DNA from: a virus
IMG/VR virus record: IMGVR_UViG_3300041583_000345
Location: 1 to 64,000 of that record
DNA length: 64,000 nucleotides
Direction: 5' to 3' (one strand)
Shown here piece after piece: positions 21,893-51,362 of the stretch. Both the position numbers and the translations under genes were made by a program. The notes beneath the pieces are model-generated. The model saw only the letters and a program-made list of their open reading frames with translations. It ran no database searches and was not told the origin of the DNA. Numbering within the stretch: the stretch's first letter is position 1; each line of letters begins with the position of its first letter.

Positions 21893-23533
21893 TTAACCTA
21901 ATAGCATGTTAGGATCTATCCCTCCCATATCATTGTTTTTTTTCTCTTTTCCGTTTGAGACTACTGCCTCAGTTATTAATAACGTTCCTGCAACAGATGC
22001 TGCATTTTCTAATGCTAGTCTAGTTACTTTAGCTGGATCGATAATTCCACTGTTAAACATATCTACTAGTGTTACTGTTCTGGGATTATACCCTTGCCAG
22101 AAGTCGTTTTTCTCTATAATTGCTTCTTCAATATCCCCAATCCTATCATGATCGTATCCTGCATTTTCTAATATCTTATAGAACGGTCTTTCGATAGCGC
22201 TTACTATAATATCATAACCCACTGCTTCATCACCTTCTAAATCTTCAAGTTTTGATACTAACATCTTAGAAGCATTTAATAATGCAATTCCTCCACCGGG
22301 CACAATACCTTCTTCTAAAGCTGCTTTGGTTGCGTGTAAAGCGTCATCTACTCTATCTTTTTTCTCTTTCATCTCTACCTCAGTATGTCCTCCTACATGT
22401 ACAATTGCGACACCTCCAATAAAGGTAGATAATCTCTCCTGTAATTTCTCTTTCTCATAAGGAGATGTTGTTTCATCAATTTGAGTTTTAATTTCTTCTA
22501 CTCTTATATTGATTGCTTCTTCGTCTCCTTTTGCATCGATGATTGTAGTCGTATCTTTTGTGATAGTGATCTTGCCTGCTTTACCTAACCAGTCTGGTTG
22601 AAATTTATCCAGTCTCATTCCTTTTTCAGTTGATATTACTTTTCCACCTGTAAGGGTGGCGATATCTTCTAACATTGCTTTTCTTCTATCCCCAAATTCA
22701 GGAGCTTTTACTACAGCACAATTAAGAATACCTCTCATCTTGTTTACTACTAGGGTAGAGAGTGCCTCTCCGTCTATATCTTCTGCAATAATAAGAAGAG
22801 ACTTAGTTTGTTGTGAAACGCCTTCTAAGACAGGTAGTAACTCTTTGATTTGATTTAGTCGTTTATCTGTGATTAGTATCAACGGATCTTGAAGAACAGC
22901 TGTCATAGTGTTATTATCTGTAACAAAGTACGGAGACTTATAACCCCTGTTGAATTGAACACCCTCAACCGTTTCTAAATACGTTTCTCCTGTTTTTGAT
23001 TCTTCGATTGTGATAACACCATCACGTCCTACTTTATCCATTGCTGTTGCAATTAGCTCACCAACTTCAGTGTCGTTGTTTGCTGATATAGTAGCGACCT
23101 GTTTTAACTGTTCTTCGTCCGTGATCTCTTTAGATTCTCCTTCAAGAAACTCTACAACTTCTTTTACTGCTTTATCAATTCCTCTTTTAATTTCTACTGA
23201 GTTAGATCCTAGTTTGATTCGGTCTAATCCTTCTGATAGAATTGATTGAGCTAGTAGGGTGGAGGTAGTAGTACCATCTCCGGCCTGTTCTCCTGTTTTA
23301 ATTGCTGCTTGTTTCACAATCTGTGCTCCTAAATTTTCTACCTTGTCTTTTAATATAATGGACTTTGCTACAGTCACACCATCTTTAGTAGATACCGGCA
23401 AGCCGTTGTCTTGTTCTATAATAACGTTTCGACCTGAAGGTCCTAATGTAGATGTTACTGCATTTGCTAATTTATCTACTCCGGCTGCAAGTTTATTCCT
23501 TGCTTCTTTTGAAAATGTTATATTCTTACTCAT
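21893..23533 (-). CDS. groEL: chaperonin GroEL
   Basis: [30 protein letters not shown] motifs; 546 aa. Confidence 0.98.
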
Positions 23534-24082: not shown

Positions 24083-26446
24083 TCAGTGGCCTTCTGCCCA
24101 ATTGTTTGCTATCTCAGGTGGAGCTTTTAATGTTACCCCAGGAAGTATGGTTGTGTTTATCATAATCTCCTGTACATAAGGTGCGAACATTTCTGCATCT
24201 TTTTCATGAACATTTATAATAAGTTGATCATGAACCTGTGCTTGCACCTGAGCATCTATTCCTAACTCTCTGGCTTTACGGTTAATTACTAATGCTGCTC
24301 GGTTTACAACAGCTGCTGCTAATGATTGGAGTTGGAAGTTTAGACAGTTGTTAAGCCCATTTCGATAATCCCTATAAGCCTGTAAAACAACTACTTTTCC
24401 GTATCTTGATTCTAATTCTTTTCTAAATCTCCAATCTAGCATTCTATCCTGAAACTTAGTATAGGTTTTTTGTACTTTAGGTAAGTGTCTAACTCGTCCT
24501 AAGTAATTCTTAATATACCCATGAGCTTTTACTTGCAATCTTGAATCTTCTCTCCATTGTTTAAGCTGTGGAAAACCATCTAGATACCCCTGTACTAATT
24601 TCTCAGCTGTTTTTTGATCTACATCTAAAGTCATCTTAAGAGCATATGCTTCCATTCCGTAAGCAATTCCTAGTGAATAGGCTTTTGCTTTATTACGGGC
24701 GTTTGGGTCTAATTTCTTAAGGTAATTATCTGCCTTTTTATCTGCTGATACTCCGTTAGGAAATCTATCTCTATCTTCGTCTAACCTTTCTGTCTTAATA
24801 GCAACTGTAGAGTAGAAATCCCATCCTTTATTGAAGATCTCTTGAAGAGCTACATCTCCTGTTATTGAAGCAAAACAATGTGGTTCTAATGATTCGTAAT
24901 CTGAATCAATTACCTTTCTATCTTTTCCGGCAATCATGAACTTTCTAACTATATTCACATATTTCAGTATGATTGGTGCATCATCACCGGGTTCTAACGG
25001 TTTAGGTAGTTGCTGAGCATCTGAGCCATATCGTCCAGAGACTGTACCGTTCTGCTTAAAGTAAAAGTAATATTTTCCATCTTCTTGTCTATCTCTAAAT
25101 CTGTCTACATAGGTAGATTTAATCTTTAATAATTTATTATAAACACGTAGATTTTCTGCCCATGGATGTTCTTTGGCAAGCTCCTTTACCATATCCATAT
25201 CGAATTTATCTCTACCGGATTTAGTATTAGCTCCTTTTACTTTAGGTTCAATTCCCATATAACCGAAAACGATCTCGCCCAGATGTTTTTTCGACTGAAT
25301 ATTTAAATACTCTCCGTCGTTACTTTCTTTCCATAATGCCATGGAAATTCTGTGTCTTTCTAACTCGTCTATAAAGGACTCGTCTCCGGTTAATAGAAAT
25401 TGCTTTACTTTCTCTTCTTTTTCATTGGTAGGTTCAAATGCTTCGATATTCTTCTGTGTTAAAGAATACTTTCCTGTCTTCTCAGACTTTGAAAGGGGTA
25501 AGGAATACCTCTCGACTAAACTCTGTGCCCAATTACCTTTATGAGAAACAGGGTAGTTATCTGCTGCAGTATCTACTACCCATCTTTTTACTGCAGGAAT
25601 ATCTAGTAGAGATTTCATCACAATTTCTTTATTTTCTACTTGATCTATTAAAATTTCATCGTAAATCTTATTAATTAAATCAACATCTAAGTCCACACCA
25701 TATGCTTCCATTGGGACTGTTACTTCCCGGTAGATTGGCATAACTTCATCTTCGAAAAAGAATTTCTCTAACCCTTCCTCTTTAAGCTTCCCTAAATATA
25801 GGTTACATATACGTAATGTTAAATCCGTATCCGCACTAGCATATTTACTAAGTATACTAAGGTCTGCTTTAAAGATTTCGTAACTTTCTTTTGTAACCGA
25901 ACCTCCATTCTTCTTAATTGAGTCTTTTAATTCAAGTTGCTCCTGGTTGGCGGCTTCTTGAACGTCTAAACCTAAAGCTTCCTGGTTCATTATCGCTATA
26001 GATTTTAATCCAAATGGATTTCCAAAGCCAAAGGCTCCTTCTTCGTAGACTGTATGAACTAGTAAACCAGTATCAACCCAAATATCTTCTATAAGGTCTA
26101 CTCCAAAATAATTTTTTATAAACTGCACGTCAAAGGAAGCATTGTGAAATACAAGTTTTTTTCCTTTAAGCATCCTTATTAAATTTTTAGAGATTACTTC
26201 AGTGGATTGACCCCCTATAGACTGTAGTATAAGTTCTTCTCTGTGGTAATCCCAAACTAAGGTTGGTAAGTAAAATCCAACCCCTTCTTCACCGGACACT
26301 GACCATCCTATGATCTTATCTTTTCTAGGGTTTAGTCCTGTAGTCTCCGTATCGACTGCAATTATATCTGAGTTTTCAATATGTTGGAATAAGAGTCTTA
26401 AGGTCTCTTCATCTTGGACGGTGTAGTATTTTTTTTCTATCTGCAT
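24083..26446 (-). CDS. polA: family A DNA polymerase with 3'-5' exonuclease domain
   Basis: DTETTG, FHNASFD, YASAD; DYESLE motif A; KAYSLGIAYG motif B; QVHDQ motif C. Confidence 0.96.
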   Translation of the reverse strand: MQIEKKYYTVQDEETLRLLFQHIENSDIIAVDTETTGLNPRKDKIIGWSVSGEEGVGFYLPTLVWDYHREELILQSIGGQSTEVISKNLIRMLKGKKLVFHNASFDVQFIKNYFGVDLIEDIWVDTGLLVHTVYEEGAFGFGNPFGLKSIAIMNQEALGLDVQEAANQEQLELKDSIKKNGGSVTKESYEIFKADLSILSKYASADTDLTLRICNLYLGKLKEEGLEKFFFEDEVMPIYREVTVPMEAYGVDLDVDLINKIYDEILIDQVENKEIVMKSLLDIPAVKRWVVDTAADNYPVSHKGNWAQSLVERYSLPLSKSEKTGKYSLTQKNIEAFEPTNEKEEKVKQFLLTGDESFIDELERHRISMALWKESNDGEYLNIQSKKHLGEIVFGYMGIEPKVKGANTKSGRDKFDMDMVKELAKEHPWAENLRVYNKLLKIKSTYVDRFRDRQEDGKYYFYFKQNGTVSGRYGSDAQQLPKPLEPGDDAPIILKYVNIVRKFMIAGKDRKVIDSDYESLEPHCFASITGDVALQEIFNKGWDFYSTVAIKTERLDEDRDRFPNGVSADKKADNYLKKLDPNARNKAKAYSLGIAYGMEAYALKMTLDVDQKTAEKLVQGYLDGFPQLKQWREDSRLQVKAHGYIKNYLGRVRHLPKVQKTYTKFQDRMLDWRFRKELESRYGKVVVLQAYRDYRNGLNNCLNFQLQSLAAAVVNRAALVINRKARELGIDAQVQAQVHDQLIINVHEKDAEMFAPYVQEIMINTTILPGVTLKAPPEIANNWAEGH

Positions 26447-36064: not shown

Positions 36065-37732
36065 TCATATCTTCTTGATTAAAAAATTATTTATTACCAG
36101 GTAGTTTATTTCTGAATCTATAAATCTCTCTATGGCTTGTTTAGGTGACATAGTGATTGTCTGGTCCTTTAAATTAAAAGAAGTATTTAACAGTACTCCT
36201 GCTCCTGTTACTCTTTTCATTTCCGATAGTAGATTATAATATTTTTCATTTTGCTTTTTACTTACTGTCTGTACTCTGCAAGTTTTATTTATATGGGTGG
36301 CAGCGGGGAAGGGGATTACATTGTGTGATGTTCTAGCAAAAGAGACTACGTTCATATAAGGGACTGGTTCTGTTGTCCCGAACCATTTATTTCCGTCTTC
36401 CTCTAATACTGAAGGTGCAAATGGTCTAAAACCTTCTCTTTTTTTAATTACATAATTAAGCTTTTCTCTCATTTTAGGATTTGCAGGAGAAGCTAATATA
36501 GATCTATTTCCTAATGCTCTTGCTCCAAATTCCATTTGACCTTGAAACCATGCTACTATATTTTGTGCAATTAAAAGTTCAGCTGTTTTTTTAATAATTT
36601 TTTCATCCGTAAGATGAAATGAAAGTACCCTATCTTCATATTTTCTAAGTTCTCTCTTTACCTCCGTGTCTGTGTACTCTGGGCCTAAGTAAGGGGATGA
36701 GTTCTCTTGGCTCTTTCCTTCATATTGGTAGAGACACGCTCCTATGGCTGAACCTGCATCAGAGGGTGCAAATGGTATATGTAAATGTTTAAAGTATTTA
36801 TATGCTTTAAAGTTTGCTACTCCATTATAAGCACATCCTCCTCCTATACATAAATTTTCAGATCCTGTGATAAGTTTAGCTTTTTCTACTAATACAAGAA
36901 ATCTCTCTTCATATACCTCTTGCAAAGCTGCTGCTAAGTTTTGATGTTCATGGGTTATAGGTTCTTCCGGCAGACGGGGGGGAATGCCCAGTAACCGGCA
37001 TAGATTTTTATTAAACATTATTTTATCTGAGTATTCCCATGTAAAATACTTCTGATCTATCCAGAATTTATTATCTGTAGTGAAAAAGATACTTTTAAGC
37101 TTGTCTTTAAATTGACTTGAATCTCCATATGGTGCAAGACCCATTACCTTATACTCTCCTTCATTAGGTTTGAATCCCAAGTAGGCTGTAAAGGTTGAGT
37201 AAAACATTCCTAGAGAATTAGGGAAATTAATTGATAAATGGTTGTAAATTCTATCCCCTCTACCTTCAGCGATTGTTGCTGTAGCCCATTCCCCTACTCC
37301 GTCTATTGTTAATATTGCAGAGGTTTGAAAATTTGAGGTATAATAGGTGAAAGCTGCATGGGAGAGGTGATGATCGGTATATGAAATTTTACCGGTATAT
37401 CCGATATTCTGTAAAAGGGTTTTTGGTGAATTGGCTTCTTGTTCTTTAAGAAATTTACGTTTTTGAAAAAATGTACTAATTGGTCTTTTTTTAAACGTAG
37501 TAACTACCCTATTTTTCTTTTTATCTGGGTTTTCATACCAACAAACTTCATCTATGTCTGTTAGTTTTATTCCTGATTCTTTAAGTAACCATTTAATTGA
37601 GTTAATCGGGAAGGAAGCATCATGTTTTATTTCTGTAAACCTTTCTTCTTCTACAGCATATAGAACTTTACCGTCTTTAACCAGACAGGCTGCTGAATCG
37701 TGATAAAAAGCAGATATACCTAGTTGTACCAT
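36065..37732 (-). CDS. NodU/CmcH family O-carbamoyltransferase
   Basis: YHDSAA, EERF, DHHLSHAA, IDGVGE, EYKVMGLAPYG, EFGARALGNRS, RPFAP, LNTSFN. Confidence 0.95.
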   Translation of the reverse strand: MVQLGISAFYHDSAACLVKDGKVLYAVEEERFTEIKHDASFPINSIKWLLKESGIKLTDIDEVCWYENPDKKKNRVVTTFKKRPISTFFQKRKFLKEQEANSPKTLLQNIGYTGKISYTDHHLSHAAFTYYTSNFQTSAILTIDGVGEWATATIAEGRGDRIYNHLSINFPNSLGMFYSTFTAYLGFKPNEGEYKVMGLAPYGDSSQFKDKLKSIFFTTDNKFWIDQKYFTWEYSDKIMFNKNLCRLLGIPPRLPEEPITHEHQNLAAALQEVYEERFLVLVEKAKLITGSENLCIGGGCAYNGVANFKAYKYFKHLHIPFAPSDAGSAIGACLYQYEGKSQENSSPYLGPEYTDTEVKRELRKYEDRVLSFHLTDEKIIKKTAELLIAQNIVAWFQGQMEFGARALGNRSILASPANPKMREKLNYVIKKREGFRPFAPSVLEEDGNKWFGTTEPVPYMNVVSFARTSHNVIPFPAATHINKTCRVQTVSKKQNEKYYNLLSEMKRVTGAGVLLNTSFNLKDQTITMSPKQAIERFIDSEINYLVINNFLIKKI

Positions 37733-41227: not shown

Positions 41228-41836
41228 TTATTTCTTTTTCGGTTCTGTTAATTCTCGTATTACTTTTAATTTAAATTCTGATATTTTTGAAGTGGGTATT
41301 TTGTATTTGTTTGCAATTTCTTTTACTATCTCCTGTGATATGCGGTTTCTTACTTCAGGTTTAAATTCTTTTATTTTCTCTCCTGATAGTACCTTGCGGG
41401 CTTCTAGTACTGCTAAAGTCCAATTTTGATTTTCTGCCTTATTGTCTGTATATTTACTTTCAACTAATTTATTGGGTTTTTGAGCTATTTCTACTGTGAC
41501 TTTCTTTTTACTAATTAGGGACTCACTTTTATTTACTACCTCTACAGTAACTTTCTTACTAACTTCTAAGACAAATTCATCTTGGTAGGGTACAAAATAG
41601 GTGTCTTCATCTACAATTACTTCTAGTTTTAATGTTCCTTTTAAGTGTTCTGGAAGTAATTTTAATTTTCCTAAATGGACTTTGCAGTTCCCTTCGGAGT
41701 TAATTACTCCGTTAAAAAGTAAACTTTGGTTGCTATTTTCCAATATTAAACGAGCTTTAGCGTTACTTAAATCTGCTCCTTCAACCGCTATTTTACATTC
41801 AAAATCTTCCTCTTTATCTTTATATATTATATGCAT
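41228..41836 (-). CDS. hypothetical protein
   Basis: 202-aa ORF downstream of a TATTTATA motif. Confidence 0.6.
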   Translation of the reverse strand: MHIIYKDKEEDFECKIAVEGADLSNAKARLILENSNQSLLFNGVINSEGNCKVHLGKLKLLPEHLKGTLKLEVIVDEDTYFVPYQDEFVLEVSKKVTVEVVNKSESLISKKKVTVEIAQKPNKLVESKYTDNKAENQNWTLAVLEARKVLSGEKIKEFKPEVRNRISQEIVKEIANKYKIPTSKISEFKLKVIRELTEPKKK

Positions 41837-41912
41837 AATACTGTTTAGTTACCTTATTTAATATAAATAGGAAGAAACTTATGTTATACCTTTTTTAAAG
41901 GGGTTTTAATAT

Positions 41913-41930
41913 TTAACATATTGGATAATA
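41913..41930 (-). promoter_or_regulatory. 3' trailer complementary to the tRNA-array leaders
   Basis: TATTATCCAATATGTTAA pairs with TTGACATATTGGATAATA at 47689-47706 (18 bp, one G-U). Confidence 0.75.
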
Positions 41931-41938
41931 TTAAAAAG

Positions 41939-42011
41939 TGGTCCCTACAGGATTCGAACCTGTGACCTTCTCGTTATGAGCGAGCTGCTCTACCATCTGA
42001 GCTAAGAGACC
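41939..42011 (-). tRNA. tRNA CAT (Ile2-like body or elongator Met)
   Basis: GGTCTCTTAGCTCAG...CTCATAA...GTTCGAATCC...GGGACCA. Confidence 0.9.
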
Positions 42012-42070
42012 TGGTCTTTTTTAGAGTTTTGAAATAGAACTCAAGGATATATCGACCTATAAAACTATTT

Positions 42071-42146
42071 TGGTAGCGGGGGTCAGACTCGAACTGACGA
42101 CCTTTGGGTTATGAGCCCAACGAGCTGCCTACTGCTCTACCCCGCG
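42071..42146 (-). tRNA. tRNA-fMet(CAT)
   Basis: C1:A72 mismatch, three G-C pairs in anticodon stem, encoded CCA. Confidence 0.95.
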
Positions 42147-42150
42147 ATTT

Positions 42151-42264
42151 GCTAATTAAAAAGGATTCGAACCTTAATCCTGTCTCTACTTTCATTCCCG
42201 TCATCTGCTAAACACAGATCGTAAAACTACTCCTTTCTGCTGTGCACCATTACACCGTAATTAA
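42151..42264 (-). ncRNA. tRNA-like RNA 1 (acceptor, D-like and T arms; expanded interior)
   Basis: TTAATTA/TAATTAG stem, GTG-TAATGGTG-CAC, AAGG-TTCGAAT-CCTT; 114 nt. Confidence 0.6.
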
Positions 42265-42311
42265 TCAAAGGATTGCAATCCTCCATAGTAAAGTTAATTA
42301 CTCTTTACATT

Positions 42312-42385
42312 TGCGGCCTATGAGAGTTTCAATCTCTCTACTCCATCGTGACAGGATGGGATGATAGTCAGTTCACCAATAGGCC
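42312..42385 (-). tRNA. tRNA-Asp(GTC)
   Basis: CCATC-CTGTCAC-GATGG; T-loop ATTGAAA. Confidence 0.9.
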
Positions 42386-42600
42386 AGTTTCACTTAGTGA
42401 GGATACTAAGCTAGATTTTAACGGTTTTATTTACTTTCAAACAAACACATTAGTGTCTTACCACATTAAAAAAAGTCAAATTACTGGGGGCTATATTACC
42501 TGCCTTTCTTCCTCAGAGGGTGGCATTAAGGATGTCCACCCTATTATCCCTATTTATTTTATAGACTCCATAGATGTCTTATTAAGTACCTCTTACTTAT

Positions 42601-42675
42601 TGTGGGCCGGACGAGGTTCGAACTCGCATACTTTTCGTTGCAAACGAAGTGCTAAGCCAGTTTAGCTACCGGGCC
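42601..42675 (-). tRNA. tRNA-Ala(TGC) lacking G3:U70
   Basis: CTTCG-TTTGCAA-CGAAA; acceptor GGCCCGG/CCGGCCC gives C3:C70. Confidence 0.85.
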
Positions 42676-42875
42676 AAATTATTAAAAACTCTTTGTACAA
42701 ATTTCAGTGTAATATCACGCTCTTAACGCTATGAACCTAATCACCAATACCTTTACAATAAACACAACTGCTGATACAGTCTATAGCTATCCACTTTCAA
42801 TTGTGGTCTTTCTCGCCTTTTCTATCAGGGAATGCTTTCACTATGTCTATCTTTAAGCAAAGAATTTTTAATAAA

Positions 42876-42949
42876 AGTACTCCTGGAGGGTATCGATCCC
42901 TCTACTCTACCGTGAAAGGGTAGTGACTTAGCCAGTTGTCGACAGGAGC
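42876..42949 (-). tRNA. tRNA-Glu(TTC)
   Basis: CTACC-CTTTCAC-GGTAG; T-loop ATCGATA. Confidence 0.9.
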
Positions 42950-43100
42950 ATTTGTAACTTTTGTAATATTCCCAGAGTTACCAACTGTACCAACCTACGA
43001 TTTGGAGAGCATCCACGCCTATATGAGTGTACCCGAAGGTATTTGTTATTTCAACTCATATCTGTAATCTCTATCTTCGATCCCTTGTACTTCGGGCTTT

Positions 43101-43174
43101 TGAGCGAATAGAGGGAATCAGACCCTCGTCCTCTGGGTGGAAGCCAGATATAATAATCACTATACTATATTCGC
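43101..43174 (-). tRNA. tRNA-Gly(TCC)
   Basis: TCTGG-CTTCCAC-CCAGA; U73; T-loop TCTGATT. Confidence 0.88.
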
Positions 43175-43235
43175 ATTAAAAGTAAACATTGACCTCCCTC
43201 GGTGATATTATCGTTAAGCGAGGTTAATTTACTTT

Positions 43236-43309
43236 TGAGCCTCTACAAGGAATCGAACCCTGTTCCTCCGGGTACAAACCGGGCACATTACCATTTATGC
43301 TTTAGAGGC
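43236..43309 (-). tRNA. tRNA-Thr(TGT), copy 1
   Basis: CCCGG-TTTGTAC-CCGGA. Confidence 0.9.
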
Positions 43310-43507
43310 AAAATAAAATAAGTTTTTTGTACCCAATGTACATCATATCGGTATTACCCGAGGTTTGATTTTTTATTTTTTACCTCTTTGTGCACTTGGT
43401 AAAAAATATTATTCCAAACTCTACCCTCCCTAGTCTCTATTTCGAAATTCACCTAGCTATCTGGGATTTATATACCGAGGGGTTATACCTCAGTCTTCAC
43501 TTACTTT

Positions 43508-43581
43508 TGAGCCTCTACAAGGAATCGAACCCTGTTCCTCCGGGTACAAACCGGGCACATTACCATTTATGCTTTAGAGGC
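43508..43581 (-). tRNA. tRNA-Thr(TGT), copy 2 (identical)
   Basis: Exact repeat of 43236-43309, 272 bp away. Confidence 0.9.
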
Positions 43582-43645
43582 AGTTAAGTTAGAATGGTGA
43601 TTTGAATACCTTTTAAGTTCTCCTTCGAACGTCTAACTTATATTT

Positions 43646-43800
43646 TGTAGCCCTAGTTGGAATCGAACCAACCTTTGATAAGTTACTTACTCTAATGTTT
43701 TAACTTTTCTCTTCAAACTAGTATAAGAAGTGTTAAACCAAAAGCCGTAACGTTATCCCACTGATAGTAGTAGGAGCGATCCACTACTATATATAGGACC
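43646..43800 (-). ncRNA. tRNA-like RNA 2 (acceptor stem and T-arm closing a 125-nt structured insert)
   Basis: GGTCCTA/TAGGGCT, GTTGG-TTCGATT-CCAAC, 3' ACA. Confidence 0.7.
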
Positions 43801-43810
43801 ATTTTAATTT

Positions 43811-43915
43811 TGTAGCTATGTTAGGATTCGAACCTAATCCGGCTTTACAATTCTAAGTGAACTTATCGTTAAACTTAACCCTGGAGAGGTGCTATCAACT
43901 AATGATTTCACAGCT
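43811..43915 (-). ncRNA. tRNA-like RNA 3
   Basis: AGCTGTG/CATAGCT, TTAGG-TTCGAAT-CCTAA, 3' ACA; no canonical anticodon arm. Confidence 0.7.
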
Positions 43916-43922
43916 ATAATTT

Positions 43923-43997
43923 TGTACTCGTGGCAGGACTCGAACCTGCAAAAGACCGTTTCTAAGACGGCCGTGTATACCATTCCACCACACGAGC
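43923..43997 (-). tRNA. tRNA-Leu(TAG), short variable loop
   Basis: GCCGT-CTTAGAA-ACGGT; 5-nt variable loop. Confidence 0.9.
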
Positions 43998-44000
43998 AAT

Positions 44001-44069
44001 TTATCCAATATGTCAATGAACCTATCTTTATTATATATAAATATACGAACTATTTACTGTATATCCTAA
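44001..44069 (-). promoter_or_regulatory. internal tRNA-array promoter (TTAG-N16-TTCGTATATTTA) with boxA-like leader GTTCATTGACATATTGGATAA
   Basis: Same arrangement as 47689-47760. Confidence 0.75.
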
Positions 44070-44087
44070 TTTTTTTATGTTTATTTT

Positions 44088-44159
44088 TGAGAGTAAGGTA
44101 GGAATCGAACCTACTCTGTTGGTTTTGCAAACCAACTGTTCTCCAAGAACAACTCACTC
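44088..44159 (-). tRNA. tRNA-Cys(GCA)
   Basis: TTGGT-TTGCAAA-ACCAA; U73. Confidence 0.88.
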
Positions 44160-44165
44160 ATTTAC

Positions 44166-44675
44166 CTAGAATAATAGGTAAGGTTTCCACTCTTCAGGTA
44201 TAAAACTTGTTTTCTTTAATAACATTAAGTAGTGTGGTCTTTTTGGTTTAGGTATTTCCCTACCGTATTCTTTTAATGTTAAATTTGCTTTTTCGTTATT
44301 ACAAATTTTACAAGCAGTTACTAAGTTATCCCAAGTGTTTGGTCCTCCTTTTGATTGTGGTACTACGTGATCTAATGTAAGTGTTTTTCTGTTATTACAA
44401 CCGCAGTATACGCATTCATGTCCATCTCTTTTAAATACATTATCTCTTGTTAGAGCTACTTTCTGGTATTCTAGTTTTACATAAGTGTAGACTCTAATAA
44501 CAGATGGTTTAAAAATTTCTAGTTTGGGGTTTACAACTCCAAATGTTTCGGGGTGTTCAACTACTACATCAGCATTACCTTTATACGAAATCACGAAAGC
44601 TCTTTCGGTAGTAATGATGCTTCTTGCAATGTAGCTTGAATCAACCACTAATGTTTTGTCATAACGATTTTTCAT
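44166..44675 (-). CDS. HNH endonuclease (McrA-like)
   Basis: RDGHECVYCG...TLDHVVPQSKGGPNTWDNLVTACKICN. Confidence 0.92.
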   Translation of the reverse strand: MKNRYDKTLVVDSSYIARSIITTERAFVISYKGNADVVVEHPETFGVVNPKLEIFKPSVIRVYTYVKLEYQKVALTRDNVFKRDGHECVYCGCNNRKTLTLDHVVPQSKGGPNTWDNLVTACKICNNEKANLTLKEYGREIPKPKRPHYLMLLKKTSFIPEEWKPYLLF

Positions 44676-44698
44676 GAGTTAATAATTAAGTTAATGTT

Positions 44699-44769
44699 TG
44701 CGCAACCCCAAGGAATCGAACCTTGTCCTATAGTTTTGGAGACTATTTGGCTACCTTAGCCCGAGAAGC
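44699..44769 (-). tRNA. tRNA-Trp(CCA)
   Basis: ATAGT-CTCCAAA-ACTAT; two U-U pairs in acceptor stem. Confidence 0.85.
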
Positions 44770-44777
44770 ATTTTGTT

Positions 44778-44851
44778 TGAACCTCCACCAAGAATCGAAC
44801 TTGGATCTAAACTTTAGAAGAGTTTTGTTATGTCCATTTAACTATGGAGGT
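44778..44851 (-). tRNA. tRNA-Arg(TCT)
   Basis: AAACT-CTTCTAA-AGTTT. Confidence 0.9.
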
Positions 44852-44854
44852 AGT

Positions 44855-44928
44855 TGAGGCTTTAGAGAGATTCGAACTCCCATTTTTCGGTTCGTAGCCG
44901 AAGGTTCTGTCCATTGAACTATAAAGCC
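44855..44928 (-). tRNA. tRNA-Arg(ACG)
   Basis: TTCGG-CTACGAA-CCGAA. Confidence 0.92.
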
Positions 44929-44931
44929 ATT

Positions 44932-45006
44932 TGTACCCATAGTAGGATTCGAACCTACAGCTTACAGGGCTTAAACCTGTTGTGTTTACCGTTTCACCAT
45001 ATGGGC
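44932..45006 (-). tRNA. tRNA-Leu(TAA), short variable loop
   Basis: ACAGG-TTTAAGC-CCTGT; 5-nt variable loop. Confidence 0.9.
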
Positions 45007-45666
45007 ATTTTTTTTCATTTCACGAGTCTTCCTAAGACTTTCTCTTATCTTTTTTTTAGTTTCCTCACTCCTTGGTTTTCCGTATTGTGAGTTTTTATTC
45101 CCACACCCCTGTCCTATTTTAGCTTTTTTCATCTTAAGTATAGTCTCTTTCGAGTGTTTTTTTCCTAGAAAAGAGTTATGAATATGTCCGCTTTTTTTTA
45201 GACCTCTTTTTATTTTTTTAGAGATAGTGTCTTTGTCCTGCTGTGTTAGATTTTTTACCCACTCTTTTTTTGTATCTTTAAGTTTTAGTATATATGCCTC
45301 TCTCCAATCTACGTCCTGTTGTAATTTCTGTTTTCTAATCTCATTTGCACACCTAGAAGTTTCTATACTAAATCCATTTCCTCCTGTTATTAAGTTTAAG
45401 CAGTTTACACTGTTTAGATCCTGTTCTGTTATTAACTGCATTTCAGCTTGAACTAGGTCTTCTCTTGAATTAAAATACTTAATTATCTCAACCTTAAAAT
45501 TGTCTCTACCGTACTTAGTTACTTCGTAGCGTAGTCTTGTACCGCTTCCTAAATATCCGTCATCGATACGGTTAGTTGAATGCATTCCTAGGTAATATCT
45601 ACTGTTTATTATATTTGTTGTTTTATAAGTAAAGTGGTATTTCTTCTTTTTTGAATAGTTAGCCAT
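44986..45666 (-). mobile_element. GIY-YIG (Seg-like) homing endonuclease with NUMOD3 motifs
   Basis: FTYKTTN...YYLGMHST...YLGSG; FLGKKHSKET and YGKPRSEETKKKI. Confidence 0.88.
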
Positions 45667-45711
45667 TTATGTTTGTTTATTATAAATAGCTAACTGTTTC
45701 AAAAAGTATAC

Positions 45712-45785
45712 TGGGTGTAAGGAAGGTATCGATCCTTCGTCTTTTGATTCACAGTCAAACATTCTACCATTGAACTACAAACACC
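45712..45785 (-). tRNA. tRNA-His(GTG)
   Basis: TTTGA-CTGTGAA-TCAAA; G-1:C73; T-loop ATCGATA. Confidence 0.9.
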
Positions 45786-45903
45786 ATGTTTGTAAGGCTC
45801 CCACTTTCCTTACTTGTCAGTCTATAGTTGTCTCTTACGAGGTGCGGGTGACTGAATTATCCTCCACATATTTCTATGTTTGAACCCGAGCGGTTTTAAA
45901 TAT

Positions 45904-45977
45904 AGTACCAATAGATGGAATTGAACCATCAACCTACTCCGTATGAAAGAGCCGCTCTACCATTGAGCTATATTGGT
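45904..45977 (-). tRNA. tRNA-Met(CAT)
   Basis: GCTCT-TTCATAC-GGAGT. Confidence 0.85.
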
Positions 45978-45981
45978 ATTT

Positions 45982-46069
45982 TGAGGAAGAAATCGGAATC
46001 GAACCGAATGCCTTTTACAGCACGATTATCTTAGCAGGATACCCTAATCACCATCATAGTTTATCTTCC
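45982..46069 (-). tRNA. tRNA-Ser(GCT)
   Basis: TATC-CTGCTAA-GATA; long variable arm. Confidence 0.88.
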
Positions 46070-46072
46070 TTT

Positions 46073-46148
46073 TGTCGATCTAGCAGGATTTGAACCTGCG
46101 GCTTATTCGGTATCAGCGAATTACTCTACCGGGCTGAGTTATAGATCG
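46073..46148 (-). tRNA. tRNA-Ile(GAT)
   Basis: ATTCG-CTGATAC-CGAAT. Confidence 0.92.
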
Positions 46149-46278
46149 AAGTTGATTACAACCTGACTCCTTTCGAACTTTGAGAAACTCGTATCATTCA
46201 ATTTTTGTAATCAATCCTGTATGAAGAGTTTTTAATACGATCACTAGAACTCAAGGGCAGGACTTCCTATAAACTAAT

Positions 46279-46355
46279 TGGAGGGTTGGGTGGGGGTCGA
46301 ACCCACGGAATCTTTTACTTAACAGGCAAATGCTTTACCACTTAGCTACCAACCC
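46279..46355 (-). tRNA. tRNA-Asn(GTT)
   Basis: TTTGC-CTGTTAA-GTAAA; encoded CCA. Confidence 0.92.
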
Positions 46356-46441
46356 TGAATTTAGTCTCTCCTAATAGTCACCCCTCTATAAGCTTCTCAG
46401 TTATGGTTCTGTGGGGTAGAAGCAACTAACTACGATGTAGT

Positions 46442-46522
46442 TGTTACGATTAAAGGACTCGAACCTTCATTGGGTATATCTACCGGTACTGCCAATGGAA
46501 CAGTCAACGCACCTGCATCGTA
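46442..46522 (-). ncRNA. tRNA-like RNA 4
   Basis: TACGAT/ATCGTA stem, GAAGG-TTCGAGT-CCTTT, 3' ACA; CATTGG/CCAATG arm with 18-nt loop in place of an anticodon loop. Confidence 0.65.
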
Positions 46523-46528
46523 ATATGA

Positions 46529-46604
46529 TGGTGGAATCTGAAGGAATCGAACCTTCTCCTTTAGTTCTTCAGACTAGCGTGCGAACCATCTACACAAAAA
46601 TTCC
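46529..46604 (-). tRNA. tRNA-Phe(GAA)
   Basis: CTAGT-CTGAAGA-ACTAA; encoded CCA. Confidence 0.9.
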
Positions 46605-46750
46605 ATATCCCTTCGTTGCTACTTACACTTTCTAGCTAGTGTGCTTTCACCCTTTCCCGTTTATTTTATATCGTCGTACTAATGGGGCTTACGCCACGAT
46701 ATTGGTTTGGCTTTTTTCCTGTTTCTTTCTTTCAGTAGCCTTCTGCCCGG

Positions 46751-46831
46751 TGGGGCAAGGTGGATTCGAACCACTCCCTTGCGGACGAGATTTACAGTCT
46801 CGCTGCCGTATCCGAACGACTTTCTCTCCCC
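46751..46831 (-). tRNA. tRNA-Tyr(GTA)
   Basis: CGAGA-CTGTAAA-TCTCG; variable arm CC-GCAA-GG. Confidence 0.88.
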
Positions 46832-46835
46832 TTTG

Positions 46836-46925
46836 ATTTTGTAATAGGACTTGAACCTATACGAAGACCTTGCGGTTACTTCAACCCTTGGAATGGGTCG
46901 TGTATCCCAATTTCACCACACAAAA
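46836..46925 (-). tRNA. atypical class II tRNA: Leu-like body, TCC (Gly) anticodon
   Basis: D arm GTG-AAATTGGGATA-CAC, GACCC-ATTCCAA-GGGTT, 20-nt variable arm, U73. Confidence 0.7.
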
Positions 46926-47022
46926 CAACTATCTTTAAGAAGACTGTAATCTCCAAATAAATAGACTAGTAAATGCAATTAACGATATTACAGTACCGTA
47001 TTTATATACACCCAACTAATTT

Positions 47023-47095
47023 TGTACCTCGTAGTGGAATCGAACCACTGCCAATTGCATGTAAAACAATTACGCTTCCATTACGCCAACGAGGC
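47023..47095 (-). tRNA. tRNA-Val(TAC)
   Basis: ATTGT-TTTACAT-GCAAT. Confidence 0.9.
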
Positions 47096-47152
47096 AAATT
47101 TAATTCTAAGCTTCGGACTTGATTCCTTCTATGAATTAATAACAGTCTCTTT

Positions 47153-47225
47153 TGTGCCCCTTGTAGGTAACGATCCTACTTCCCGATATTAAAAGTATCG
47201 TGCTTCACCTTAAAGCTTAAAGGGC
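47153..47225 (-). tRNA. tRNA-Lys(TTT)
   Basis: CGATA-CTTTTAA-TATCG; T-loop ATCGTTA. Confidence 0.9.
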
Positions 47226-47282
47226 AATTCCGCATTTCTAAGATAGGTGGCATTTTTACACAGCCAGCGGACCTATTTGTGG

Positions 47283-47357
47283 TGGTCGGGTAGAGAAGAG
47301 TTGAACTTCCCGCCTCTCGCTTCCAAAGCGAGCTTCTCACCCCGAGAATACTACCCG
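47283..47357 (-). tRNA. tRNA-Pro(TGG)
   Basis: CTCGC-TTTGGAA-GCGAG; encoded CCA. Confidence 0.92.
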
Positions 47358-47426
47358 TATTAATCTACTTTTACCCTGGCTATATATGGCATTTCATATC
47401 TTTTACCCAGGCTATTTTGTAGATTA

Positions 47427-47500
47427 TGTTAGTATACCAAGATTCGAACTTGGGCTATTTGATTCAAAGTCAAATGTGTTAACCGCTACACTATATACTA
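47427..47500 (-). tRNA. tRNA-Gln(TTG)
   Basis: TTTGA-CTTTGAA-TCAAA; U1:A72. Confidence 0.92.
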
Positions 47501-47596
47501 ATTTAAAAACTACTTACACCTAATAAAGAAATCTCATCTTTTCTTCGCCCAGGGACGAATTAGTTTCATTGACTTAGGCGAATTACAGTAGTTTTT

Positions 47597-47687
47597 TGAG
47601 GAAGGTGTGGGATTCGAACCCACGGGTGCTTTAACACACCTCCAGTTTTCAAGACTGGTGCAATTAGCCGGACTCTGCCAACCTTCC
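47597..47687 (-). tRNA. tRNA-Ser(TGA)
   Basis: CCAGT-CTTGAAA-ACTGG; long variable arm. Confidence 0.93.
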
Positions 47688-47688
47688 T

Positions 47689-47760
47689 TATTATCCAATA
47701 TGTCAATGAACTTTAATTTCTTATAATGTAAATATACGAACTATATTTCACACCTCCTAA
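47689..47760 (-). promoter_or_regulatory. tRNA-array promoter (TTAG-N16-TTCGTATATTTA) with boxA-like leader; near-duplicate promoter at 47921-47952
   Basis: Seen directly; the -33 hexamer differs from the GTTG class but the 16-nt spacing is the same. Confidence 0.75.
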
Positions 47761-47973
47761 TCTTTTATGTCAAGTTTTTAACTTCTTTTTTTAGCCTTTC
47801 ATGATAGGTTTTGTTTTTTTCGATAAAATATGTTTCCATGTCTCTACCTTTCCATCTTTCAGCTAACATTTTAAATACTTTAGTGTCTTTAAATTTTACC
47901 ATATCTTTAATTTCAATACGTAAATATACGAACTATATTTCACATCTCCTAATTTTTTTACACTTACTTTAAT

Positions 47974-48004
47974 AAAAAAACCCGAATCTTTTGGATCCGG
48001 GTTT
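47974..48004 (-). terminator. intrinsic terminator downstream of the leader ORF
   Basis: AAACCCGGATC-CAAAA-GATTCGGGTTT (11 bp) followed by a U tract. Confidence 0.88.
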
Positions 48005-48031
48005 AGTTTTGGTTTGATATGTTTTATTCTA

Positions 48032-48184
48032 TCAACTTATACTATTCCCGGATATGTATCTCGGCTGCTTATATTCATTATTGGCTAACATAAAATCTGT
48101 AATATCGCCACATACTGAACTCGCCCATATAATGGACTGTATCACTGTTTGTAAGAGTGAGTGTATGTTTGTAATAGTTTTCAT
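48032..48184 (-). CDS. 50-aa leader peptide, candidate attenuator
   Basis: MKTITNIHSLLQTVIQSIIWASSVCGDITDFMLANNEYKQPRYISGNSIS; own promoter at 48204-48236; ATCCGGG in codons 44-46 pairs with the terminator 5' arm. Confidence 0.75.
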   Translation of the reverse strand: MKTITNIHSLLQTVIQSIIWASSVCGDITDFMLANNEYKQPRYISGNSIS

Positions 48185-48252
48185 TGTTTCTTTTTATCTT
48201 TAATAAATATACGAACTTTATCTTTTCAGTCCAACTTTATTTTAAATGTTTT

Positions 48253-48780
48253 TTATATAGTAATTTTACCTTTCACACCAGGTACCATTTGTTTAATTTG
48301 TTCTTTAGAGTATTTTTTAGAAATGGGGGTGTTTTTTAAATAAAGATCACCTACTACTGTTAAATCTTGGGGGAGGGAGGTTATTGGGGTATTATTTAAA
48401 TAAAGATAACCTACTACTGTTAAACCTTGGGGGAGGGAGGTTATTGGAGTATTTTCTAAATCAAGAGAACCCCCTACTGTTAAGTCTTTAGGTAATGCGG
48501 TGATAGGAGTATATGATAAATAAAGATAACCTCCTACTGTTAAACCTTGAGGTAGCGAGGTGATTTTGCTCCCATATAAATCAAGATTACCTTTTACTTT
48601 TAAATCTTGAGGTAGGGAGGTTATTGGTGTACCTGCTAAATCAAGATCATTTTTACCCCCATCCTTCATATATTGTTGGATTTTCTTTTGCGTAGCAATT
48701 AAAAAGTTCTTAGTACGTTCTTCAGGGGAACGTCTAGGGACTAATATTTTATTTTCTAATATGTCTATTAATTTTATCAT
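48253..48780 (-). CDS. 20-aa LRR-like repeat protein, 6 units
   Basis: GGxLxLxxTPITSLPQGLTV units; shared N- and C-caps. Confidence 0.88.
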   Translation of the reverse strand: MIKLIDILENKILVPRRSPEERTKNFLIATQKKIQQYMKDGGKNDLDLAGTPITSLPQDLKVKGNLDLYGSKITSLPQGLTVGGYLYLSYTPITALPKDLTVGGSLDLENTPITSLPQGLTVVGYLYLNNTPITSLPQDLTVVGDLYLKNTPISKKYSKEQIKQMVPGVKGKITI

Positions 48781-49247
48781 TATATAATAATTTCACCTTT
48801 CACACCAGGTACCATTTGTCTAATTTGTTCTTCATTATATTTTTTAGAGATGGGGGTATTTCTTAAATAAAGATTACGTCCTACTGTTAAACCTTGGGGG
48901 AGGGAGGTTATTTTAGTATTTCTTAAATCAAGATCATCTCCTACTGTTAAACCTTGTGGTAGGGAGGTTATTGGGGTACTATTTAAATTAAGATAACCCC
49001 CTACTGTTAAACCTTGAGGTAGGGAGGTTATTTTGCTCCCATATAAATAAAGAGAACCTCCTACTGTTAATCCTTGGGGGAGGGTGGTTATTGGTGTTCT
49101 TCCTAAATTAAGATCACCTTTACTTCCATCCTTCATGTATTGTTGGATCTTCTTTTGGGTAGCAATTATATAATTCTTAGAGCGTTCCTCAGGGGAGCGT
49201 CTAGGGACTAGTATTTTATTTTCTAATAGATCTATTAGTTTTATCAT
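48780..49247 (-). CDS. 20-aa LRR-like repeat protein, 5 units
   Basis: Same architecture. Confidence 0.88.
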   Translation of the reverse strand: MIKLIDLLENKILVPRRSPEERSKNYIIATQKKIQQYMKDGSKGDLNLGRTPITTLPQGLTVGGSLYLYGSKITSLPQGLTVGGYLNLNSTPITSLPQGLTVGDDLDLRNTKITSLPQGLTVGRNLYLRNTPISKKYNEEQIRQMVPGVKGEIII

Positions 49248-49954
49248 TGTATATAAATTTCACCTTTTACTCCCGGTACCATTTGTTTAATTTGTTCTTT
49301 AGAGTATTTTTTAGAGATGGGGGTATCTCTTAAATCAAGATTACGTCCTACTTTTAAATTTTGAGGTAGGGTGGTTATTGGGGTATTAGTTAAATAAATA
49401 TTACTTCCTACTGTTAAACCTCGGGGTAATGAGGTTATTGGAGTATTCTGTAAATCAAGATAACCTCCTACTGTAAAACCTTGGGGTAGGGAGGTTATTA
49501 GAGTATACCTTAAACTAAGAGAACCTCCTACTGTTAAACCCTGTGGTAGGGAGGTTATTGGGGTACTATTTAAATTAAGATAACCTCCTACTGTTAAACC
49601 TTGGGGGAGGGAGGTTATTGGGGTATCTCTTAAATCAAGAGAACCTCCTACTTTTAAACCTTGAGGTAGGGAGGTTATTTTAGTCCCATGTAAATCAAGA
49701 AAACCTCCTACTGTTAAACCTTGAGGTAGGGAGGTTATTTTAGTATAAGATAAATCAAGATAACTTCCTACTGTTAAGCCTTGGGGTAGGGAGGTTATTG
49801 GGGTATTTTTTAAATCAAGATCACCTTTACTCCCATCCTTCATGTATTGTTGGATCTTCTTTTGGGTAGCAATTATATAATTCTTAGAACGTTCTTCTTT
49901 GGAACGTCTAGGGACTAGGATTTTATTTTCTAATATGTCTAATAGTTTAATCAT
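49244..49954 (-). CDS. 20-aa LRR-like repeat protein, 9 units
   Basis: Same architecture; 60-bp DNA period visible. Confidence 0.88.
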   Translation of the reverse strand: MIKLLDILENKILVPRRSKEERSKNYIIATQKKIQQYMKDGSKGDLDLKNTPITSLPQGLTVGSYLDLSYTKITSLPQGLTVGGFLDLHGTKITSLPQGLKVGGSLDLRDTPITSLPQGLTVGGYLNLNSTPITSLPQGLTVGGSLSLRYTLITSLPQGFTVGGYLDLQNTPITSLPRGLTVGSNIYLTNTPITTLPQNLKVGRNLDLRDTPISKKYSKEQIKQMVPGVKGEIYIQ

Positions 49955-50714: not shown

Positions 50715-51362
50715 TTATATATAAATATTACCTTTAACATCAGGTACCATTTGTTTGATTTGTTCTTTACTATATTTTTTAGAGATGGGGGTCTTACTTA
50801 AATAAAGATAACCTCCTACTTTTAAATCTTGAGGTAGGGTGGTTATTGAGATATTTCTTAAATAAAGATCATCTCCTACTGTTAAACCTTGGGGTAGGGA
50901 GGTTATTAGAGTATTTTCTAAATCAAGAGAACCTCCTACTGTTAAACCTTGGGGTAGTGAGGTTATTGGAGTGTTTTTTAAATAAAGACTATCTCCTACT
51001 GTTAAACCTTGGGGGAGGGAGGTTATTTTAATCCCATGTAAATCAAGATAACCCCCTACTTTTAAATCTTGAGGGAGGGAGGTTATTGGGGTATCTCTTA
51101 AATTAAGGGCACCTCCTACTGTTAAGCCTTGGGGTAGGGAGGTTATTTTAGTATTTCTTAAATCAAGATAACCTCCTACTGTTAAACCTTGAGGGAGGGA
51201 GGTTATTGGGGTATTATCTAAATAAAGATTACCTTTACTCCCATCCTTCATATATTGTTGAATTTTCTTTTGCGTAGCAATTAAAAAGTTCTTAGAGCGT
51301 TCTTCTTTGGAACGTCTAGGGACTAAAATTTTATTTTCTAAGAGATCTATTAGTTTTATCAT
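50715..51362 (-). CDS. 20-aa LRR-like repeat protein, 8 units
   Basis: Same architecture. Confidence 0.88.
   Translation of the reverse strand: MIKLIDLLENKILVPRRSKEERSKNFLIATQKKIQQYMKDGSKGNLYLDNTPITSLPQGLTVGGYLDLRNTKITSLPQGLTVGGALNLRDTPITSLPQDLKVGGYLDLHGIKITSLPQGLTVGDSLYLKNTPITSLPQGLTVGGSLDLENTLITSLPQGLTVGDDLYLRNISITTLPQDLKVGGYLYLSKTPISKKYSKEQIKQMVPDVKGNIYI

Follow-up and report, generated by a model that had tools for sequence, protein, structure and literature searches.

The DNA analysed here, referred to as the window, comprises the first 64,000 nucleotides (64 kb) of a 121.9-kb phage record of IMG/VR (IMGVR_UViG_3300041583_000345), in which nearly all long ORFs lie on the minus strand. 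On this strand, a promoter is followed by a small ORF, by an intrinsic terminator whose 5' arm can alternatively pair with the 3' part of the ORF, and by a large tRNA array (Table 1). The ribonucleotide reductase of the phage is 84% identical to that of Flavobacterium phage vB_FspM_immuto, a 160-kb myovirus from the Baltic Sea and the nearest isolate. However, immuto has only four tRNAs, and the 51-codon ORF before its tRNA-Ser is unrelated and has no terminator, i.e. the element described here is missing from this isolate.

Table 1. Positions of the leader region, the tRNA array and neighbouring features in the window. Relatives, and the loci in them, are given as L followed by a number.
Feature	Position	Strand	Description
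Promoter P1 of the leader	48204-48236	minus	Box AGTTCGTATATTTA at 48217-48204, resembling the Bacteroidota -7 element TAnnTTTG; promoter-like site at 48233-48206
Leader ORF	48032-48184	minus	50 codons plus TGA; ATG at 48184, 20 nt behind the promoter box, with an A-rich stretch before it; all 20 amino acids by codon 42
Small local hairpin	48047-48063	minus	CCGAGAU with AUCCGG (codons 41-46); can hold the 5' strand of the antiterminator; possible weak anti-antiterminator or pause hairpin; present in the minimum-energy fold of the full leader
Composite antiterminator hairpin	47995-48053	minus	Outer stem: ATCCGGG (48053-48047) with CCCGGAT (48001-47995); middle stem: UAGU (48044-48041) with ACUA (48007-48004); inner stem: TTGATA (48035-48030, containing the TGA stop) with TATCAA (48019-48014)
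Intrinsic terminator	47974-48004	minus	Stem 48004-47978 of 11 pairs including one G-U, 5-nt loop, then seven T to 47974; arms conserved in L117, L158, L161 and L162
Promoter box P2	47921-47934	minus	Exact copy of the box, 40 nt behind the terminator
Second small ORF	47765-47902	minus	45 codons, Lys/Glu-rich, between P2 and P3; no terminator behind it; no Pfam or PHROG match
Promoter box P3	47729-47742	minus	Exact copy of the box, directly before tRNA-Ser
Sequence before tRNA-Ser	47700-47727	minus	Resembles the 5' end of a leucine-rich-repeat gene
tRNA array	41938-47687	minus	25 tRNAs called by ARAGORN; one more added by Rfam
tRNA-like gene	46835-46925	minus	91 nt with a long extra arm; called Gly(tcc); Rfam score only 30.8 bits
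Homing-endonuclease genes	44166-44675 and 44986-45666	minus	Two genes inside the array: one HNH, one matching PHROG 314 (annotated homing endonuclease)
Trp(CCA)-like tRNA	44701-44769	minus	Missed by ARAGORN, found by Rfam at 29.9 bits; anticodon loop reads CCA; weak acceptor stem
Promoter box	44038-44051	minus	Restarts transcription before tRNA-Leu(tag)
Leucine-rich-repeat genes	48253-49954 and 50715-51362	minus	Tandem paralogues with a shared N-terminus and C-terminal cap (Pfam LRR_4/LRR_1)
Cpn60/GroEL-type chaperonin, carbamoyltransferase and family A DNA polymerase	21893-23533, 36065-37732, 24083-26446	minus

The tRNA genes together cover all 20 amino acids with 22 anticodons, and no tRNA lies elsewhere in the record. 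The weak Trp(CCA)-like gene has a clear tRNA-Trp as its counterpart at the matching place in L117, whereas the odd tRNA-like gene with the long extra arm is called Arg(tct) in L006 and His(atg) in L117. The 30 nt just before tRNA-Ser, and the same place in L049, L117, L158 and L162, look like the start of a leucine-rich-repeat gene (MIKLIDILENK, as in the genes at 48780, 49247 and 49954). The array, or its first promoter, seems to have been inserted at the head of a paralogue in the repeat-gene cluster, inside which many contigs of relatives end. The second small ORF is absent from the close relative L158, where a single promoter follows the terminator; it is therefore not part of the proposed switch and looks like a recent insertion with a duplicated promoter.

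The original prediction, which named the promoter, the unannotated ORF with all 20 amino acids, the 11-bp terminator and the mutually exclusive hairpin, is confirmed, as every element was found where it had been placed. The promoter box occurs 12 times in the window, always on the minus strand, against 1.5 copies expected. The terminator is the only terminator-like site on the coding strand within the 8 kb scanned (41500-49500). The three alternative stems fold into one hairpin of -18.0 kcal/mol (z -5.6, reached by 0 of 200 shuffles), compared to -14.6 kcal/mol (z -4.1) for the terminator hairpin. However, the presence of all 20 residues is unremarkable alone, since it occurs in 2-3% of random or real 50-residue stretches (P 0.028) and the ORF is one of 52 ORFs of 40-60 codons in the window. 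In contrast, the pairing between the ORF and the terminator is found in only 0.17% of decoy stretches.

To find relatives, we used the upstream 249-residue protein and the leucine-rich-repeat genes as anchors, read the records of long relatives, searched by peptide similarity and ran one DNA pattern scan. The ORF belongs to a leader family, found only in uncultured relatives of immuto from Baltic-type or freshwater Flavobacterium hosts, whose members share a similar start of the peptide and fall into four subtypes: the window type (window, L158, L117, L161 and L162, i.e. 5 distinct sequences with 41-88% identity), the L122 type (46 codons), the L049 type (36-41 codons, 21 distinct sequences) and the L046 type (24-27 codons, rich in Leu, Val and Cys, 4 distinct sequences). 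Each has a Bacteroidota-type promoter, an A-rich stretch, an ATG, the ORF and a strong terminator. All 37 further loci recovered by peptide similarity alone have a tRNA array that begins 107-192 nt behind the ORF. Most relatives have a second promoter behind the terminator, but no promoter lies between the terminator and the first tRNA in the L046 type (L046, L164, L168 and L178), in L148/L149 and in the window-type L161. In the L046 type the first tRNA starts 8-15 nt after the terminator, whereas in L148/L149 and L161 the unit sits inside an array, between two blocks. Other approaches were less productive. DNA and protein searches of the phage record collection with the leader region, the leader peptide and the 249-residue protein found nothing, and anchoring on the gene behind the array gave only near-identical relatives. 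The close relatives L002 and L003 are 100% identical across the leader and thus uninformative. A peptide alignment of all four subtypes was too divergent for a locus search, and a 40-residue peptide was too short to be used alone. Furthermore, the arrays of the relatives L118, L119 and L123 have no such leader, and no leader-terminator unit was found before the second tRNA block of the L049-type genome. This second block is preceded in L121 (G004:C1:227000-235500, reverse strand), about 70-190 nt before tRNA-Cys, by a long GC-rich hairpin followed by a run of T (arms AACACCCG and CGGGTGTT, about 50 nt apart) without an evident small ORF, which may be a different kind of control element.

Across 12 leaders, the frame contains 0 stops, against 46 and 69 in the other two frames. 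Among 16 distinct L049-type heads, variable sites fall 8:12:11 over the three codon positions, and nonsynonymous pair differences outnumber synonymous ones (513 against 249). The leader ORF has no match to any Pfam or PHROG family. These data fit a frame that must be read but whose product is not under selection. Hence, it appears unlikely that the ORF is an ordinary small phage gene with its own terminator, in which the pairing would be chance or would stabilise the 3' end of the mRNA. It must be mentioned that gene callers in public data predict the ORF as a hypothetical protein, that the first 30 residues are well conserved within the L049 type and that promoters behind the terminator could make the array independent of it. 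Nevertheless, the missing codon-position bias, the strict linkage to tRNA arrays, the relatives without a promoter between terminator and tRNA, and the conserved pairing described below speak against this explanation. An untranslated structured RNA, such as a transcriptional insulator, an RNase processing site, a short regulatory RNA released at the terminator, or an arrest-peptide or ligand sensor independent of tRNA supply, is regarded as even less likely. The strong nucleotide-level conservation of the L049-type head indeed lies within a multi-branch fold, and released attenuator RNAs can act in trans in other bacteria (PMC6614838). However, the frame is kept open through leaders of 24 to 51 codons and through variable tails in AT-rich DNA, an ATG with an A-rich upstream stretch is always present, no Rfam family reaches its threshold, and the match between leader codons and tRNAs (see below) would have no meaning for an untranslated RNA.

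The conservation of the pairing and of the amino acid completeness in homologues had been named beforehand as a test of the idea. We compared the pairing between the last 60 nt of the ORF and the 5' arm of the terminator with 1,729 decoy stretches of the window, which gave P values of 0.0017 (window), 0.004 (L117), 0.015 (L161), 0.042 (L162), 0.0006 (L122), 0.0006 (L046) and 0.04 (L049 type). The pairing is better than in decoys in 8 of 9 lineages, although the arm cores are of four unrelated kinds (CCCGG, GCCCUGGG, AGCCCAUC and CUGAAC), and Fisher's combination over the nine, not fully independent lineages gives about 2e-10. Moreover, 5 of the 21 L049-type sequences changed AG to GA in the ORF and CU to UC in the arm, 80 nt apart, so that two pairs were exchanged on both sides (AU to GC and GC to AU). 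No pair in the 7-bp core is broken and 0 of 500 shuffles reach the covariation score, but these compensatory changes sit in one clade and may represent a single evolutionary event. The same arm change weakens the terminator stem itself, hence the selected pairing is the one with the ORF.

When transcripts were folded that had been cut before the 3' arm of the terminator, the antiterminator was the minimum-energy fold in 9 of 10 leaders, including that of the window. It was lost only when a 27-nt ribosome footprint lay near the 3' end of the ORF, which in the window means a P site at codon 41 or later. A stall at nearly any earlier codon would thus favour read-through, and the caveat of the original prediction that stalls at P41/R42 would probably still mask the switch is supported as well. 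However, equilibrium folding of the full transcript with a masked ribosome was uninformative, because the terminator wins in most relatives whatever the ribosome position, and nearly everywhere in the L049 type. As in the trp operon, the decision would therefore have to depend on co-transcriptional kinetics. Regarding an anti-antiterminator, the L049 type has a 5-bp 1:2 stem that is 98% paired but with almost no covariation, no better than in shuffles, and the window has only the small local hairpin. An untranslated leader might therefore read through by default.

The content of the leader follows the tRNAs behind it. This became first visible in the L046 type, in which a run of Leu, Val and Cys codons precedes the genes for tRNA-Cys, Val, Val and Leu. 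Using standard wobble, the leaders of relatives with partial arrays hold cognate codons for 14 of 14 anticodons of the block behind them in L122, 13 of 13 in L148 and in L144, 12 of 12 in L143 and 11 of 12 in L129. The complete scores are reached by 0-0.05% of phage gene stretches of equal length (0-0.3% when L129 is included) and, for the three leaders L148, L144 and L122 tested in this way, by 0.03-0.4% of stop-free shuffles of the ORF's own bases. In contrast, only 1 of 4, 1 of 5 and 2 of 9 of the anticodons confined to the other block of the same genome are sampled (Fisher 0.002-0.006). Further details agree with this picture. The first 30 codons of the L049-type leader lack Ala, Asp, Glu, Gly and Leu, whose tRNAs lie in the other block, and its single Arg codon is CGU, matching the Arg(acg) tRNA behind it, while Arg(tct) is in the other block. 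L161 lacks Arg, and a tRNA-Arg lies upstream of its leader.

In the window subfamily, which has full arrays where the contig shows them, the leaders hold 20, 20, 20, 19 and 20 residue types. The L049, L122 and L046 types have 12-19 residue types, close to expectation, and we initially regarded the all-20 property as near chance and not conserved; this reading was replaced by the inventory tests. For the window itself the statistics remain marginal: its leader samples 20 of 22 anticodons, missing acg and tag (P 0.035 against gene stretches and 0.085 against shuffles), but with a nearly complete array the test has little power. Its codons are not enriched for phage-decoded ones (29/39 against a background of 0.77). 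A conditional simulation for the window subfamily gave 6e-4 if the variable columns are independent, but by our estimate it is not significant if shared ancestry is allowed for, and we do not rely on it. Hence, one could assume a translation-capacity sensor without codon-specific meaning, which compares ribosome with polymerase speed and responds to any global slowing of translation, such as host shut-off, ribosome shortage or inhibitors, as the antibiotic-sensing leader attenuators do; the match between leader and tRNA set would then be a by-product. This is consistent with the equal effect of a stall at any of codons 1-40 in the folding model and with the marginal scores of the window. Nevertheless, we consider it unlikely, since in relatives with partial arrays the leader lists exactly the anticodons behind it and not those of the other block, which a by-product would not do.

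Taken together, the best-supported explanation, to which we assign a probability of about 0.68, is a ribosome-mediated (leader-peptide) transcription attenuator that controls read-through from P1 into the tRNA array and whose leader is a codon inventory of the tRNAs behind it. In this model, a ribosome that translates smoothly to the last ten codons and the stop codon would cover ATCCGGG and melt the inner stem, the competing hairpin could not form, and transcription would end at the terminator. If the ribosome lags or stalls at any of about 40 earlier codons for want of a charged cognate tRNA, the competing hairpin would capture the 5' arm of the terminator first and the polymerase, provided that it is coupled to translation in these hosts, would run on into the tRNA genes. 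The result would be a negative feedback of decoding capacity on tRNA supply. As P2 and P3 would supply a basal level, the switch can only add to expression in the window, as the original prediction had stated in proposing that it would boost rather than gate expression. The anatomy, its conservation, the pairing and the match between leader and array are shown by our sequence analysis, whereas translation of the leader, stalling and read-through are inferred. It should also be mentioned that 50 codons are long for such a leader.

The interpretation put forward originally, a phage sensor of host tRNA-destroying defences, is thus only partly supported. The attenuator itself is backed by comparison, but its purpose is pure inference, and a simple homeostasis of tRNA supply explains the same data. 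Since the leader carries a codon for nearly every anticodon, loss of any one host tRNA species, for instance to an anticodon nuclease or another tRNA-cleaving defence, would stall the ribosome and switch on a complete replacement tRNA set, which would make the element an inducible counter-defence rather than plain supply control. This possibility is compatible with the data but remains doubtful. The question why phages carry tRNA genes is still debated, and the ideas include codon compensation and, more recently, escape from tRNA-cleaving defences (PMC10264068, PMC11555353), whereas little seems to be known about the regulation of phage tRNA arrays. If the switch works as proposed, the phage would measure decoding directly and adjust tRNA synthesis, and the leaders would provide a sequence-readable list of the tRNAs that each transcription unit is meant to supply. 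Our full-text searches found no paper on attenuators before phage tRNA genes, and a key paper on phage tRNAs and defence does not mention leaders, terminators or promoters. What would be new is the extension of trp-type attenuation from amino acid and synthetase genes to tRNA genes and to Bacteroidota phages, with the window as the pan-amino-acid extreme.

Among known systems, T-box riboswitches and the pheST-type attenuator, which control aminoacyl-tRNA synthetase genes, also couple the state of the tRNA pool to transcription read-through of genes of the decoding apparatus. However, a T-box binds uncharged tRNA directly and needs no ORF, and no T-box match was found by Rfam at E up to 1 in 47650-48300, while pheST senses one amino acid and regulates a synthetase instead of tRNA genes. 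The ribosome-stalling attenuators of antibiotic-resistance genes, such as vmlR of Bacillus subtilis (PMC9226507) and hflXr of Listeria (PMC6310831), likewise combine a small upstream ORF with a terminator/antiterminator choice, and read-through follows when ribosomes stall for a general reason and not for lack of one amino acid. Those systems sense drug-stalled ribosomes and switch on ribosome-protection or ribosome-rescue factors, whereas here the output would be tRNA genes and the leader content follows the tRNA set behind it. The multivalent leader-peptide attenuators of the enterobacterial amino acid operons ilvGMEDA, thr, leu, his and trp (PMC1183508) have a promoter-proximal short ORF, an intrinsic terminator whose 5' arm can instead pair with a segment inside or just after the ORF, and regulatory codons that report the supply of charged tRNA. 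In the window, the regulated genes would be tRNA genes and not biosynthetic enzymes, the leader is long and holds about one codon for nearly every anticodon instead of a run of one codon, the anti-antiterminator is weak or absent, further promoters follow the terminator, and the element lies in a phage of a Bacteroidota host. The Rfam families Thr_leader (RF00506; 23.5 bits against a gathering threshold of 55) and Trp_leader (RF00513; 17.4 against 41) match only the terminator region and stay far below threshold. Nevertheless, the L046-type leaders even look like ilv/leu leaders, with their run of Leu, Val and Cys codons before the corresponding tRNA genes.
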